In this document: positions 32,662 to 41,765 of the stretch, piece by piece | How the letters are laid out: the number at the start of each line of letters is the position of its first letter | Position numbering within the stretch: position 1 is the first letter of the stretch | Assembly: GCA_044892525.1 (NCBI GenBank) | Contig: CM097888.1 | Span: 29,264,001-29,328,000, forward strand | Reading direction: 5' to 3' | Origin: Schmidtea polychroa | Taxonomy: Eukaryota | DNA: 64,000 nucleotides | The notes under the pieces: generated by a model | The model's input: the letters and a program-made list of their open reading frames with translations, nothing else | What the model was told of the DNA's origin: nothing | The model's database searches: none | Translations under genes and position numbers: made by a program

Positions 32662-32907
32662 TTAGTGCTGTTGCCAGCGCAACCCAAAATACAACATTGT
32701 TATACCGCTTGATATCCGCTGAGTAATCAACGTTGGTACTGTATCAAGTGGGTGAGTACTCGCAAAAAGTGAGCGCACTAACGGCACTATAATTGTCGGG
32801 TACTCTATGGGTCCACGAACTACCGTTAGAAGGTATGTGTCCGATTTACTCGGGTCCTTACTGTAATTGTTTTCCCAAACGCCCTTATACAAATTTACTG
32901 TCATCAT
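32662..32907 (-). CDS. Unclassified family ORF2, copy F (late frameshift)
   Basis: WENN...KSDTYLLTVVRGPIEYPTIIVPLVRSLFASTHPLDTVPT aligns without gaps to 41466-41765. Confidence 0.7.
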   Translation of the reverse strand: MMTVNLYKGVWENNYSKDPSKSDTYLLTVVRGPIEYPTIIVPLVRSLFASTHPLDTVPTLITQRISSGITMLYFGLRWQQH

Positions 32908-32910
32908 AAA

Positions 32911-33300
32911 TCACAACAACATGTACATTAATTTATTAAAATCCATACATTCAATCACAACTAGGATGCTGAAGTCGATTTGGTTTTTTCTAGTCGCTCC
33001 TGTTCTGCCAACCAGGCTCTTCAATTTCTCATGAGTGTTTCGCCCTAACCGATTGCGTTTCGGTTTCCTCGACTGTGCCAGCGGATAGATTTCGGCAAGT
33101 TCTATGATTAATGGACGACTCTGAGCATTGGTGGTTTCAACAATGAACTTCTCGTTCAATTTGACTTCTAACGTGCGGACTTGTGGCTTTCTATTTGATC
33201 CTGCTCCGTCTGGGTCTGGAGTTGTAGAATCTGGGCAGTCCTTTCTTCATTTCCGCCGGACTAAACCAAGTTCCCTCGAATTCCCGGCACTTTTGGAGGG
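32911..33300 (-). pseudogene. Unclassified family ORF1, copy F (subfamily 2, 5'-truncated, frameshifted)
   Basis: KCREFEGTWFSPAEMKK...QILQLQTQTEQDQIE...RTLEVKLNEK aligns to 40983-41387. Confidence 0.75.
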
Positions 33301-34169
33301 GTTCAGTAGGAACCGGAATTAAAGGTATTATGAAAGCTTTTGAATTAAATAAAAATTAATTATTAATAGTATTAAATAAATACCAAAAATAGAATTAAAA
33401 TTACTAAGTTTAGAACTTAATTATAAATAGTAATAAACAATTACTATATTTAGATTTTAAATAATAATAGTATTTTATTATATATAAATACACATATTTA
33501 GTAATTAAATAATTACTAAAAATAGATATAGTCAAGTAAAAAAATAGTATAAATATAATTATAAATTTAGTTGTGAGTACGACAAAAATATTACAGAAAT
33601 AATAAATGAATATTCTGAACGTAAGCAATCAATAATATTTAAGGCTCACAATTAGCAACTGTAGTGAATTTTTGATTGAGCACACATCTCGAGTTAGTTA
33701 TAAATCGTTGGAATTAGTATCGATTGATATTAAATTCATAGATAACCATTTTCGGGTTCATTTATATTCAGCACAGGATTATCAAATAGTTAGTTATTAT
33801 TATTAAATATATTACCTTTTTTACAAATAAAGGGCACAGTCATCAGCCAACACTTTTTGTAGCTGTTTTGACTGTTTAAAATAAAACTATTAACCATTTA
33901 TCTGGGTTAATAGTATCGCGGTTAAATTTCGGGAATCCATCCTCTTTATCCGTTCACCTATATCCGGCTGTTGGCGCATTTAGGGCCAGCCTTGATTCTT
34001 TGAAATAATCTTTAGGGCGGTTTGTATAACCGATATCTGCGTGCAGCTAGATATTATTTGGTTATCATTTTGTGTTTAATACATATTTTGTTTTGATAAA
34101 ATTTAATTCATATTGTTATTTATTTATTTAATATTCACGCGCAACCTAACATATAATTTGTGGAGTCAA

Positions 34170-34304
34170 ATCTTTTTGTGTTAGATCGAACTACCCATCG
34201 AACCTAACACTTTCCTTTGAGCTTCTCAACCCTGACTCGAAGGTCTTCGGCTTTTTGTTGGGCCTGCTCGTGGTCCTTTCTTAAGTTCTCAAATAACTTG
34301 AACA
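34170..34304 (-). pseudogene. Unclassified family ORF1, copy H (subfamily 2, 3'-truncated)
   Basis: VFKLFENLRKDHEQAQQKAEDLRVRVEKLKGKC vs copy E VYKLFEGLRKDREQAQQQVERLQSSINKFKERC. Confidence 0.75.
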
Positions 34305-34501
34305 CTAAATAGAAAAGGGAAAATTCATTTAATCGATATCAATGTTTCTATTCAAATAGATGTGTAAAGTCACCTCTCAGTCACCTGAACTCAAGGGTAT
34401 ACCACAAAGAAAATGAAATTCAACTATTCGATATTACAATAATTTATTCAGCTATCACAAAGATGCGGCTAATAAAGGCTAGATATAACAAAAAAGTTCA
34501 G

Positions 34502-34917
34502 TTAAAGTAAGTAAAAATGAAGATCATTGTCAAAATTGAAAGTTGAAGTTAGGTTACAGTGGATTCTCCCAAGCCTCCCTCGCTTCCGAGGGGGCGCATC
34601 TTCGTTCTCACCCTCTTCCAGCTGGGTTCCCGCCTCTTTCGCCTTGAGCTTGGCTTCAATTCGCTTTAGGTTGCGTTGAGCAACCTCCACCTCTGTCTGG
34701 GCTCGGTTTCGGACCTCCACCAGCGTATTATGATAGGGTTCTGTTTTAACCCATGCGGGGGCGTCAAGCTCGGGTCCACTTCGGATCATTGGGCCATAAT
34801 TATCTAAATCCAGGCCCGGTTCCAGTCATGGATCTTGAACCAAATATATCTGGTTCAGAGTCGAGTGAGTAGCTGCCAGTCTGCTTCTTCATGACTGTGG
34901 TTGCTGGAATGGCACAT
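34502..34917 (-). pseudogene. Unclassified family ORF0, copy F (one stop, one frameshift)
   Basis: MCHSSNH...RYIWFKIHDWNR/DLDNYGPMIRSGPELDAPAWVKTEPYHNTLVEVRNR...IEAKLKAKEAG...RKRGR is homologous to 40378-40831. Confidence 0.78.
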
Positions 34918-39359: not shown

Positions 39360-39360
<1 letters not shown>

Positions 39361-40377
39361 TACTTATAAACGAGAAATATATAAATTTTGATCTGACAAC
39401 CCCCCCCATTTTCATAATATGCCGAGCTTGAAGAGAACAATTCTAGATAATTCAACTGCCCAGATAATAAAGCTAATGATAATAACTTAAATTATATGTA
39501 TAAATTATAATACCAATGAGATTGTAATATAAAAACGAAAAGTCAAAAATAATTTTCCGATTTCATTTATTTAAAAAACAAAAAATACCGAATAACTTTA
39601 AATTTAATAATTCCTCTTAAAATTCCAATCTCCTAAATTTTAATTTTATTGACATGAATATAAGGTTCAGTTTGTTCACAATCCCGCAATCGGATCAGGC
39701 AATGCATTTATCATTGTTGGAGTTGTCTTCCAGAACGTTGTTGAACATTTTTTTTATTTCGAAGCGCTTTAGAGATTTATCACACTTATCTCGCTCCTTC
39801 TTATCACATTTTCTTTTGTGTCACAATGAGTTCTACATTTTTCTTAATTACACAGAATGTCCAGTTTGGTATTCAATATCTGTTCAGTTAATTTTAGATT
39901 TCCTTCTAACGATCGGGTATCTAAATAAAGCATTCTAAAGGTTGATATTTATGAATTATAACACTAACTTGATTTTTAATAACTATACCAGTTTCGATAT
40001 GCCTTAACTGGACTACATTTGACGTTTTATTAGTGGCTTATTCCTATGGACCTAACCTCGTATAAATTTCTCTTCTATGCCAGCTTCATTATAATAAATT
40101 TTCTTGGAATATAATCGGCTGAAAATAGACAATAAAAATAAATAATAGAAAATCAATTCAATTACTTAAAATTTTATTGGTATTAATTTTACATCATTTT
40201 ATATATACAATAACAAAAATTTTAAAAATAAAAATATTCACGACGATTTGAAAGTTCATCGTAAATGAATAACTTTAAACAAAAAGAAAATTAATAGCAA
40301 GAATATGACAATCGAAAATGGCAATCGACGTGATTTATTAAATAGAAAGAGCATTAATCTATAATCAAAAATTTAGA

Positions 40378-40831
40378 ATGTCACAATCCAGTGATCACAA
40401 TGAGGAAGACCGGTGTGACGTGACGACTACAAGCCTTCACTCCAGACATATCTGGCAGCACATTCACAGATGGAACCAGGGACGGGACCTGGACAGTTCG
40501 GATAGCTTAATCAGGAATGGACACGAGGCCAGTGCCCCGGCGTTGGTAAAATCAGAACAACTGGCTCGTAGAGGCACGGGACCGCACCCTTGGTGCCATC
40601 GCCAGAGCCCAATATGAGCTCCGACTGATCGAGGCCCATATTCGTGCAGTCGAAGCCGGCCGGCTCATCCAGGAGGCCGAAGTTGAGTCGACATCAGAGA
40701 AAAAACGGGGCCGGCCCCGCAAGAAGGCTCCCAGAAGTTGCAACCCGACAGAAATCCACGATCTCGTGACAATCCTATTGAACATTTATGATTTTATTAT
40801 TTTGGTTGTAGTGATTTTTCGTAATTTATGA
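40378..40831 (+). pseudogene. Unclassified family ORF0, copy E (one frameshift near 40555), with AT-hook-like KRGRPRK
   Basis: MSQSSDH...RHIWQHIHRWNQGRDLD...GHEASAPALVKSE/NNWLVEARDR...LRLIEAHIRAVEAG...EKKRGRPRKK. Confidence 0.78.
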
Positions 40832-40982
40832 CTCCTTTATTATTAATAAATAAAATTGTTTTACAAATAGTTTATCATTTAAGTTGGGCACTAAGGTTTA
40901 ATAGGCTTTCCTAGGGGCTCAGTATCTCATATATGTCCATAAAAGATTTACCTCGGAGACACCTACAAGCGATAGCGAAATA

Positions 40983-41387
40983 ATGCATGTTAAAAGTCAT
41001 TTGATGATGGTTCTCATTTCAGTGTACAAGTTATTCGAAGGCCTCCGAAAAGATAGAGAGCAGGCTCAGCAACAGGTCGAGCGACTCCAATCCAGCATCA
41101 ACAAATTTAAGGAACGTTGCCGGAACATGAATCAAACTTGGTTTCGTCCCGAGGTGATGCACAAGCATTTAAAGCAGATCGAGCAGTTGCAGCTCCAGAA
41201 CGCCCAGGACAAAACCGAGATACGCGCCCTGAAATTACAGATGCGGGCCATGGAAACAAAGTTAAATCAGAAAACTATAGACGAACACGTCACGGCAGCC
41301 AATGGCTATAGAACTGGCCGAAATTCACCCAACCAAGTTCAAGGCCAAACGAAAGCGGCTAGTGTGACTGGCCGAGCAAGGACCTGA
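40983..41387 (+). CDS. Unclassified family ORF1, copy E (subfamily 2, 134 aa)
   Basis: Coiled-coil ORF with NQTWFRPEVM, linked to the EGTWFSP motif through copy F. Confidence 0.7.
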   Translation: MHVKSHLMMVLISVYKLFEGLRKDREQAQQQVERLQSSINKFKERCRNMNQTWFRPEVMHKHLKQIEQLQLQNAQDKTEIRALKLQMRAMETKLNQKTIDEHVTAANGYRTGRNSPNQVQGQTKAASVTGRART

Positions 41388-41465
41388 AACAGAAAAATCA
41401 AAGTTAAAACCACTTGATGGTTAATGAACAGAATCTGACTAATTTTTAAATAAAAATGTAAAATT

Positions 41466-41765
41466 TTGATGTTGAAGTCATGCGTGTCGAATGATGAAAT
41501 TGAACGACAAGTTGTGCGATTTTGGGAGAACAATAGAGGCAAGGGACCAATGAAATCGGACATAAATCTTCTATCGATAGTCCGTGGACCCAAAGAGTAC
41601 CCGACAATTATAGTGCAAGTAGTGCGCTCACTTTTTGCGAGTACTCACCCAGTTGACACATTACCAACGATGATCACTCATCGGGTGTCCATTGGTAGCA
41701 TCAACCTTGTATTCTGGGTTACGCTGGAAACAGCACGAAAGGGTGAGATGTCTGACCACCTGTAA
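41466..41765 (+). CDS. Unclassified family ORF2, copy E
   Basis: VRGPKEYPTIIVQVVRSLFASTHPVDTLPT; synonymous differences from copy F (gat/gac, att/atc, tca/tcc). Confidence 0.7.
   Translation: MMLKSCVSNDEIERQVVRFWENNRGKGPMKSDINLLSIVRGPKEYPTIIVQVVRSLFASTHPVDTLPTMITHRVSIGSINLVFWVTLETARKGEMSDHL

Follow-up and report, generated by a model that had tools for sequence, protein, structure and literature searches.

Long terminal repeats of Burro-type giant gypsy elements in Schmidtea polychroa carry two selected genes and a non-coding end with a predicted RNA fold

Two LTRs of Burro-type giant gypsy elements, here called E and F, lie one inside the other in a 64,000-nt window of the Schmidtea polychroa genome (GCA_044892525.1, CM097888.1, positions 29,264,001–29,328,000, forward strand). 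In the 3′ part of such LTRs, purifying selection acts on two protein-coding genes, ORF0 and ORF1; beyond them lies the non-coding LTR end, which has a predicted RNA fold and had been read as a third gene, "ORF2". This overall architecture, a Burro LTR with a gene pair and a non-coding end, is nearly certain. By analogy with complex retroviruses, the two genes are most likely spliced, LTR-encoded accessory regulators; the full explanation, in which a selected LTR gene pair provides nuclear accessory regulators acting in trans while the structured end acts in cis, is held with somewhat better than even confidence. Burro elements are among the largest retrotransposons known and rank among the main targets of PIWI silencing in planarians. 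ORF0 and ORF1, which are selected, exchanged by type and absent from the tested RT-less elements, may provide handles on the activation, export and packaging of a 30-kb RNA. Should the two be regulators, a gypsy lineage too would have accessory-gene control as in complex retroviruses.

The sequence-only reading of the window described two independent copies of an operon-like unit of three genes, more like a viral block than a host locus. Indeed, three similarity blocks are collinear between 40378–41772 (+) and 34917–32630 (−) (tblastx sum E 9e-48), and the virus-like character is borne out, as the unit belongs to a Burro-type LTR. The operon-like unit itself dissolves: what was seen is the 3′-terminal 1.5 kb of an LTR ~5.2 kb long, in which ORF0 and ORF1 have separate splice acceptors and "ORF2" is non-coding. 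Nor are the copies rare, independent loci, being two of ~3,400 LTR ends, with E nested in the LTR of F (Table 1). E sits ~345 bp inside F in the opposite orientation; the F sequence breaks off at 41772 and picks up again at 38705, and the 5′ part of F on either side of E aligns with LTRs of full elements. After removal of its two nested insertions, the F LTR is ~5.5 kb. E is without the TGTTGGG start and shares 74–80% identity with a full element's LTR; of the GCTT on its right, the left flank repeats only three of four bases. The 916-bp repeat within F ORF1 has many stand-alone copies in the genome and is likely a solo LTR of another family; a MITE was rejected because of the TG...CA ends and the 4-bp duplication.

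Table 1. Features of the nested Burro-type LTRs E and F (window coordinates)
Feature	Position	Strand	Remarks
Copy F, Burro-type solo LTR, TGTTGGG...CCCACCA	32630..42116	-	AAAT at both flanks
F non-coding structured LTR end ("ORF2")	32630..32880	-	four frameshifting indels relative to E
F ORF1 exon	33000..34304 (lower end approximate)	-	acceptor AG 34306-34305; insertion and several frameshifts
916-bp repeat within F ORF1	33294..34209	-	TG...CA, AAAG duplication
F ORF0	34574..34917	-	in-frame stop and frameshift near 34815
Copy E, 5′-truncated LTR of a different Burro LTR subtype	38706..41772 (left edge approximate)	+	nested in F
E ORF0	40378..40729	+	frameshift near 40557; KRGRPRK at 40703-40723
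E ORF1 exon	41023..41424	+	splice acceptor 41021-41022; frameshift near 41295
AATAAA, candidate polyadenylation signal 3′ of E ORF1	41449..41454	+	motif read in the sequence
E non-coding LTR end ("ORF2")	41520..41772	+	seven predicted helices; terminates in integrase att site

Genome-wide, the LTR start motif has 2,708 exact matches against none in reversed controls, and the LTR end motif 3,433 against 73. A primer site matching the genomic tRNA-Pro(TGG) genes stands directly 3′ of 407 LTR ends, against 0 in the control. F and other copies have short inverted TG...CA termini (TGTTGGG...CCCACCA), and 4-bp target duplications are found at F (AAAT), three solo copies (AAGT, ATAG, and TCGG) and one full element (ATAA). 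On account of these termini, duplications and primer site, the idea that CCA marks a tRNA-like 3′ tag, as in retroplasmid- or Penelope/Terminon-like elements, was dropped. A full element of 35.8 kb has LTRs 99.8% identical and 30.7 kb apart, and encodes gag, CCHC, MATH, fusion glycoprotein, RT, RNase H, integrase, ankyrin, TRAF, and BIR. Burro full copies are ~36 kb with one ~4,800-codon gag-env-pol region, an E-subtype LTR heads the same interior (87–99% amino acid identity), and 52 of 150 scored ORF0 matches form 26 same-strand pairs 29–36 kb apart. The stretch ahead of the 3′ LTR, checked for a polypurine tract, is conserved, yet not purine-rich.

Burro/GYPSM1 elements are described as giant gypsy-like LTR retrotransposons of planarians (PMC6431247). 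The present elements agree with the text of that account in size (>30 kb, with a ~25-kb interior), in the ~4,800-codon gag-env-pol region, gypsy order and thousands of copies, and in the domains CCHC, MATH/TRAF, fusion glycoprotein, RT, RNase H, integrase, ankyrin, and BIR (PMC6431247). BCL2-like, SUMO-like, and dUTPase-like motifs, some of which that study found by HHpred, gave no Pfam report at E ≤ 0.01 in the full element. Its text on Burro names only internal and upstream accessory ORFs and no LTR genes, although its Figure 2A may draw some, and that text does not describe LTR subtypes swapping against gag, a structured LTR end or a non-autonomous partner (PMC6431247). In the literature on LTR-encoded or accessory genes of Burro and gypsy elements, no description of the ORF0/ORF1 pair was found; Grohme 2018, its supplement and Repbase, outside the scope of that search, may bear on novelty.

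ORF0, hidden by frameshifts in the window, proved to be a real gene. The E and F versions match in HSPs of 34, 26, and 53 aa (41–54% identity) that run across frameshifts present in E and F alike and across one in-frame stop of F, and a profile of 13 other natural copies matches E at 1e-21/2e-17 and F at 3e-28/2e-11; the proposed homology stands, over ~115–120 aa and not ~130 aa. Median pairwise dN/dS is 0.12–0.17 for ORF0 and ORF1 (bins with pS 0.1–0.74) among natural copies chosen for open frames (25 ORF0, 26 ORF1), whose pairs are non-independent. In these open copies of either gene, third codon positions are the most variable (0.49 and 0.55 vs. 0.22–0.32). ORF0 precedes ORF1 in all 38 LTR ends that have both, in keeping with the order given in the sequence-only reading. 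The two do not form a strict unit: 7 of 66 ends have ORF1 only (one match being weak). Some pairs reassort, although the identities of the two genes correlate (Spearman 0.89, 13 of 17 copies). In annotation, these ORFs will be taken wrongly for a large family of host genes.

Proteins of the ORF0 family (~121 aa) consist of an acidic N-terminus, a W..IH.W helix, a coiled coil and a C-terminal KRGRPRK. The KRGRPRK of E and the RKRGR of F, pointed out in the sequence-only reading, are both present, and within the RKRGRPRK core, RGRPRK is invariant in 13 of 13 aligned rows. AT-hook motifs bind the minor groove of AT-rich DNA. ORF0 shares the RGRP core with K/R flanks with HMGA-type AT-hook proteins (PF02178), but has a single hook and a weak score to Pfam AT_hook (5 of 13 members at E ≤ 0.1, best 0.009); KRGRPRK could simply be a nuclear-import signal. 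The predicted ORF0 structure is poor (pLDDT 66, pTM 0.31). Homologues were not found at E ≤ 0.001 among proteins of near length, and a library of 1.84 billion sequences gave 10 matches; these centre on the hook end, and not one reaches 1e-10. The ORF1 family (~145–155 aa) has two long helices/coiled coil and a basic helix, KRKRLGR, and its predicted structure is all helical (pLDDT 85). For ORF1, no homologue was found at E ≤ 0.001 among proteins of near and longer lengths, and Foldseek with the model returned nothing at E ≤ 0.001. A viral-contig search gave two loci, with matches confined to the C-terminal part. A prediction of the ORF1–ORF0 complex, run without alignments, scored 0.01 and speaks neither for nor against an interaction. 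These motifs and predicted helices suggest nuclear, DNA-binding or oligomerising roles for the two proteins.

The ATG at 40983, taken earlier as the ORF1 start, is not conserved, and similarity starts at the splice acceptor. An acceptor AG lies 5′ of ORF1 in 26 of 26 copies and 5′ of ORF0 in 24 of 25. Because each gene has its own acceptor, both would be read from spliced RNAs, and their inferred location is U3. No conserved splice donor was found within 700 bp upstream of ORF0 (15 copies), and no GT-AG joint was seen in contigs of three presumed-RNA runs and one unlabelled run. One of the presumed-RNA runs has contigs over the two ORFs and over the LTR end but none over the spacer, which is also the most divergent region between subtypes; this coverage is not taken as evidence of expression. 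Of 26 copies, 16 have an AWTAAA no more than 160 bp from the ORF1 stop and 10 have none.

The ORF0/ORF1 pair is an exchangeable module on near-identical Burro backbones. Among 11 elements (55 pairs), gag pS is 0.01–0.24 throughout, while ORF0 pS is at least 0.6 in 41 pairs and ORF1 pS in 39. Elements with gag 1–3% apart at synonymous sites have ORF0/ORF1 70–88% apart; in one pair, pS is 0.01 for gag, 0.70 for ORF0, and 0.87 for ORF1. A faster mutation rate in place of swapping was rejected, since pairs of elements that share a gene type have the same pS in the ORF as in gag (5 and 8 of 55). Diverged LTR variants, an LTR history at odds with the interior and pairwise recombination at transposition are also described for crapaud of Podospora (PMC10787394) and Onsen (PMC5668417); in those texts the variable LTR part is not described as carrying genes, whereas here it holds two selected ones. 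Six gene-less 5′ LTRs were found: in all five tested, the elements share one internal deletion removing env, RT, and integrase, and the structured LTR end is retained. Gene loss in these non-autonomous elements may go back to one or two ancestral events rather than five separate ones. Because the gene-less 5′ LTRs tested belong to elements without RT and integrase, the ORF0/ORF1 products probably act in trans.

HIV nef and foamy-virus tas/bel overlap U3. Tat/Rev-type proteins are accessory regulators, and export of the Rev/Rex/Rec type uses an arginine-rich RNA-binding helix, a leucine-rich export signal and a cognate response element. The MMTV superantigen (sag) is described as an ORF within the LTR (PMC2119085). 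Like sag, nef, and tas/bel, ORF0 and ORF1 are LTR-encoded, present in both LTRs and variable between strains; unlike them, they are two genes whose products both have motifs of nuclear type, in a gypsy element of an invertebrate, and no sequence similarity to these proteins was found; sag, for its part, is a membrane protein. ORF1 resembles the Tat/Rev type, as far as sequence and prediction go, in a basic helix and an oligomer-type coiled coil adjoining structured RNA, but no homology of either ORF to Rev/Rex/Rec or Tat was found. Whether the two proteins are nuclear regulators of the element's own expression we consider evenly balanced. In such a mechanism, ORF0 would tether through its AT-hook to AT-rich repeats of its own LTR type and activate or shield LTR transcription, and ORF1 would oligomerise through the coiled coil, bind nucleic acid with the basic helix and perhaps help the unspliced RNA of ~30 kb to leave the nucleus. 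The promoter-plus-genes module would be exchanged by template switching between co-packaged RNAs, and divergent versions would persist because in each a promoter stays together with the regulator that fits it, or because they evade piRNA silencing. Much more tentatively, Burro might be an invertebrate counterpart of complex retroviruses in which the LTR forms an independent control unit that can be exchanged whole, comparable to the immunity region in lambdoid phages. Such a unit would combine an AT-rich promoter with ORF0 as its own AT-hook transactivator and with ORF1 as a Rev-like RNA-handling protein whose target is the structured LTR end. Its types would be ancient, held in balance and moved between gag-env-pol backbones that hardly differ, and the thousands of solo LTRs would remain as potential sources of regulator expression.

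Alternatively, ORF0 and ORF1 could be counter-defence or exclusion factors, which blunt piRNA/heterochromatin silencing or block rival Burro types, their diversity coming from an arms race and not from promoter-regulator matching. Deeply diverged gene versions are maintained on near-identical backbones, the Burro element bears other host-modulating domains, and BURRO1 is described as repressed by SMEDWI-2 in planarian tissues (PMC8532177). On the other hand, dN/dS is low throughout, the rapid amino-acid change is not seen, and homology searches gave no similarity of the two proteins to known suppressors. We regard this alternative, which partly overlaps the preferred one of nuclear accessory regulators, as possible but rather unlikely. 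It is improbable that the proteins are particle or integration helpers, with ORF0 tethering the pre-integration complex to AT-rich chromatin and ORF1 as a coiled-coil assembly or budding scaffold: the AT-hook plus helix of ORF0, AT-rich flanks at several insertions and ESCRT-III-like hairpins among the best ORF1 fold matches would fit, but none of the fold matches reaches significance (best E 0.11), all being of a kind common to helical hairpins, and the genes swap freely against gag, with which helpers would be expected to co-evolve.

"ORF2", in contrast to the two genes, is not a gene and should not be named one in annotation. Its frame is broken in 57 of 63 copies, among them young elements with intact ORF0 and ORF1; 32 of 36 rows have frameshifting indels, and differences are spread over the codon positions without periodicity (0.200/0.215/0.213). 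Instead, the region forms covarying predicted helices: 14 of 41 pairs are altered on both sides and 96.6% of cells are paired, against 28–39% in slid controls, in a structure hand-drawn from the very alignment used to score it. With RNAalifold alone the structure was sparser (23 pairs) and in part different, and the terminal helix never covaries. Rfam at gathering score gave 0 matches in the 64-kb window, and a hammerhead or other known ribozyme was accordingly rejected. A frame of at least 80 aa is open in six copies, all of the E subtype, and F has an 81-aa ORF at the same place, so that the three-gene block with a real ORF2 protein at least in the E subtype might be defended; since the F frame is shifted relative to E, codon-position bias is absent and paired changes account for the conservation, we consider this very improbable. 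In 5′ LTRs this end stands immediately 5′ of the tRNA-Pro primer site, beside which it may have a priming and packaging role; it is likely needed in cis.

It is likewise very improbable that the two genes, ORF0 and ORF1, are GC-rich passengers, captured but with no role and kept only as DNA or RNA signals, since frames and residues are retained while synonymous sites are saturated, internal stops occur in only 5 of the best-scoring 150 ORF0 matches, and dN/dS is as low as given above. Their composition is distinct, with GC of 53–57% and GC3 of ~0.6 against 40% and 0.37–0.39 in the internal genes, which points to a different origin or regime.

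Tblastx of 40300-41900 against the window returned collinear matches to the minus strand at 34917-32653 (sum E 9e-48), and these matches connect E and F, which the sequence-only reading had taken for two independent copies of a conserved cassette of three genes, ORF0 (AT-hook-like), ORF1 and "ORF2". Homology of ORF0 between E and F is borne out by three aligned pieces of 34, 26 and 53 aa with 41-54% identity, and ORF1 also aligns piecewise. ORF0 ends in KRGRPRK in E and in RKRGR in F; both copies harbor a frameshift, and that of F an in-frame stop as well. In blastn the sole matching part is the last 250 bp (80%), a hint that this part is conserved as nucleic acid. 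The independence of the two copies did not hold: the AAAT-flanked long terminal repeat (LTR) of F, the location of E inside it, and an E-subtype LTR elsewhere that heads a normal interior of Burro/GYPSM1, the giant gypsy-like retrotransposon of planarians (87-99% amino acid identity to a full element), show E and F to be decayed LTRs that differ in subtype, one lying nested in the other.

Features located in the window
Feature	Position	Strand	Remarks
F	42116 to 32630	minus	single solo LTR, AAAT on each side
E	about 38706-41772	plus	LTR without its own 5′ end, inserted about 345 bp from F start
TG..CA repeat			916 bp, inside F ORF1, AAAG duplication
Second conserved LTR block	37770-38140	minus	non-coding
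ORF1-like gene	25237-25998		inside 4.06-kb solo LTR, TGTTGGG...CCCAACA, ATTG duplication
ORF1-like gene	12352-13038
ORF1-like gene	17964-17755	minus
ORF1-like gene	8551-8351	minus
Region of ORF1-like genes	22474-26537	plus
Region of ORF1-like genes	9893-13610	plus
Penelope-like element	46389-49149		RT, GIY-YIG; 950-bp inverted duplication
MULE transposase	14714-15859
Inverted paralogous ORF pair	55868-56845 and 60601-61563		short-chain dehydrogenase-like (by eye)

When the genome was searched with E, 47 matches came up (40 of 3,158 candidates scored), and many of them share one end point. This end, GTAACCCACCA, occurs 3,433 times in the genome versus 73 for the reversed control, and the flanks past it are unrelated to one another in the copies read. 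A fixed start, TGTTGGGCTAGAACTGA, lies ~5 kb upstream (2,708 matches versus 0 in control), 4-bp duplications flank solo copies, and a primer-binding site complementary to genomic tRNA-Pro(TGG) genes follows 407 LTR ends versus 0 in control. One full element of 35.8 kb, whose LTRs are 99.8% identical, encodes gag with CCHC knuckles, MATH, a viral fusion glycoprotein (E 2e-69), RT, RNase H, integrase, ankyrin, TRAF and BIR-RING domains in its interior, in agreement with Burro/GYPSM1 as described in an excerpt of PMC6431247; the element itself is already known, and its presence points to a planarian host. Among the best 150 ORF0 matches of 2,407 candidates, 52 form 26 same-strand pairs 29-36 kb apart, being the 5′ and 3′ LTRs of one element, and no significant copy of ORF0 or ORF1 was found in the element interior.

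Several further features of the element were observed. Several elements have, at matching positions, a stop codon between gag and the remaining polyprotein (3437-3439 in L049, a Burro copy), and both autonomous and non-autonomous elements have, where the polypurine tract is expected before the 3′ LTR, a conserved stretch without purine enrichment. Gene-bearing and gene-less LTRs share a second conserved block in their 5′ part (LTR positions ~970-1400; 3940-4370 in L048, another copy), which is non-coding and may be a promoter or a structured RNA. LTR-plus-short-interior units form a tandem array at G000:C1:39424161-39471594 (genome coordinates; 15.8-kb period, 99.9% identical), and tRNA-Pro(TGG) genes, with 2,164 pattern matches genome-wide, form a large one from G000:C1:130901009 onwards (475-bp period).

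ORF0 and ORF1 are, on the evidence of their sequences, genes that each start behind a splice acceptor. In 65 LTR ends (69 minus 4 duplicates), natural uninterrupted frames were present in 25 for ORF0 and 26 for ORF1. Third codon positions are the most variable, and median pairwise dN/dS is 0.12-0.17 in bins with pS (synonymous-site difference) of 0.1-0.74 (148 and 89 pairs, with those that are closer or saturated omitted), open frames being selected and pairs sharing ancestry. YAG stands two bases ahead of the first full codon in 26/26 ORF1 frames and AG at most 2 nt from a candidate ATG in 24/25 ORF0 frames; no conserved nearby splice donor was found in 15 copies. Both genes are GC-rich (53-57%, GC3 ~0.6), compared with 40% in interior genes. 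The structure prediction that had been proposed as a check gave for ORF1 (~145 aa) an all-helix fold of two long helices and a basic C-terminal helix (pLDDT 85), and for ORF0 (~121 aa) a weak model with an acidic start, a W..IH.W helix, a coiled-coil helix and an invariant RGRPRK, which matches Pfam AT_hook weakly. Sequence searches for both, and a fold search for ORF1, found no homologue outside this genome. Four more ORF1-like genes lie in the window, two of which were aligned (22-23% identity to ORF1); the one at 25237 belongs to a more distant LTR family, with an ATG of its own and an additional CxxC. None of the four has an ORF0 match nearby.

"ORF2", by contrast with the proposal of a third protein gene, is the end of the LTR and not a gene. 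Its differences are flat over codon positions (0.200, 0.215 and 0.213 in 34 rows of a 36-copy alignment, two disrupted rows dropped), frameshifting indels relative to E are present in 32/36 rows, and the frame is open for at least 80 aa in only 6/63 ends, all of E subtype (with 3 ends from a different family excluded), so that a real third gene is scarcely credible. A predicted fold of seven helices accounts for the conservation: 96.6% of cells are paired, with both-side changes in 14/41 pairs, some single-row changes stemming from the two disrupted rows, and the score exceeds all 500 shuffles and far exceeds slid controls, in helices picked on the alignment on which they were scored and in counts that relatedness inflates. 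Pairs of helices 3, 4 and 5 rank among the top unbiased covariation signals; no Rfam family matched. In the general layout of U3, R and U5 (excerpt of PMC3601003), the position of this structured end, after AATAAA and before the primer site, is consistent with U5 or R-U5.

Full elements are 81-94% identical in the first 700 bp and last 250 bp of the LTR and in the interior, and most of the middle 4 kb of the LTR is unalignable between them. In 11 of 13 elements gag lay within the stretch fetched. All 55 pairs of these have a gag pS of 0.01-0.24, and pS is at least 0.6 in 41/55 for ORF0 and 39/55 for ORF1; one pair has 0.01 for gag, 0.70 for ORF0 and 0.87 for ORF1. A faster clock for ORF0 and ORF1 is disfavoured, since pairs with the same gene type (5 and 8 of 55) have ORF pS near gag pS, which argues for recombination. 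In a comparison of 13 of 17 copies the two genes mostly co-travel (Spearman 0.89, deep clades agreeing), with reassortment in some pairs. Recombination within an LTR family (PMC5668417) and LTR subtypes within one family (PMC10787394) have both been described before. We did not find, in the literature searched, an exchanged LTR part with two selected genes, nor any description of the ORF0/ORF1 pair; Grohme 2018 with its supplement, Repbase and the figure of PMC6431247 lie outside that literature.

Of the conserved three-gene order, the ORF0-ORF1 part stands, in all 38 LTR ends with both genes, and the third member falls away as a gene. Among 66 ends, the other 28 have ORF1 only (7), ORF0 only (0) or neither (21); 11/66 are E, F or ends chosen for likeness to E, and without them both genes are present in 27/55. 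Six gene-less ends have the primer site, and 5/5 tested sit on short elements in which gag and the structured end are retained and a shared deletion has removed env, RT, RNase H and integrase (three were read completely, two over 7.3 kb). The five could trace back to one or two events; their pattern is the one expected of products acting in trans and an RNA acting in cis. A non-autonomous Burro family of ~15-20 kb without env, RT or integrase was observed (G000:C1:75301701-75317400, 19489101-19505100 and 70790301-70804500), keeping one open frame of ~1,570 codons in which gag is fused to the C-terminal part of the polyprotein, reading through the position of the gag/polyprotein stop codon.

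A mechanism that we favour by a modest degree would place ORF0 and ORF1 in U3, expressed from spliced RNAs. The hook of ORF0 would bind the AT-rich repeats found in LTRs of its own type, activating or shielding transcription, and ORF1 would oligomerise and bind nucleic acid, perhaps that of the structured end, and thereby handle the very long unspliced RNA; promoter and genes would be exchanged together through template switching, and non-autonomous elements would borrow the two proteins. LTR-borne accessory genes are also carried by HIV and foamy viruses. MMTV, with such a gene in its LTR, is like Burro in this respect (excerpt of PMC2119085). A role of ORF0/ORF1 in counter-silencing or exclusion, rather unlikely in our estimate, draws support from PIWI repression of BURRO1 (excerpt of PMC8532177). 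A particle or integration role is more doubtful still, and functionless passengers are a most improbable reading.
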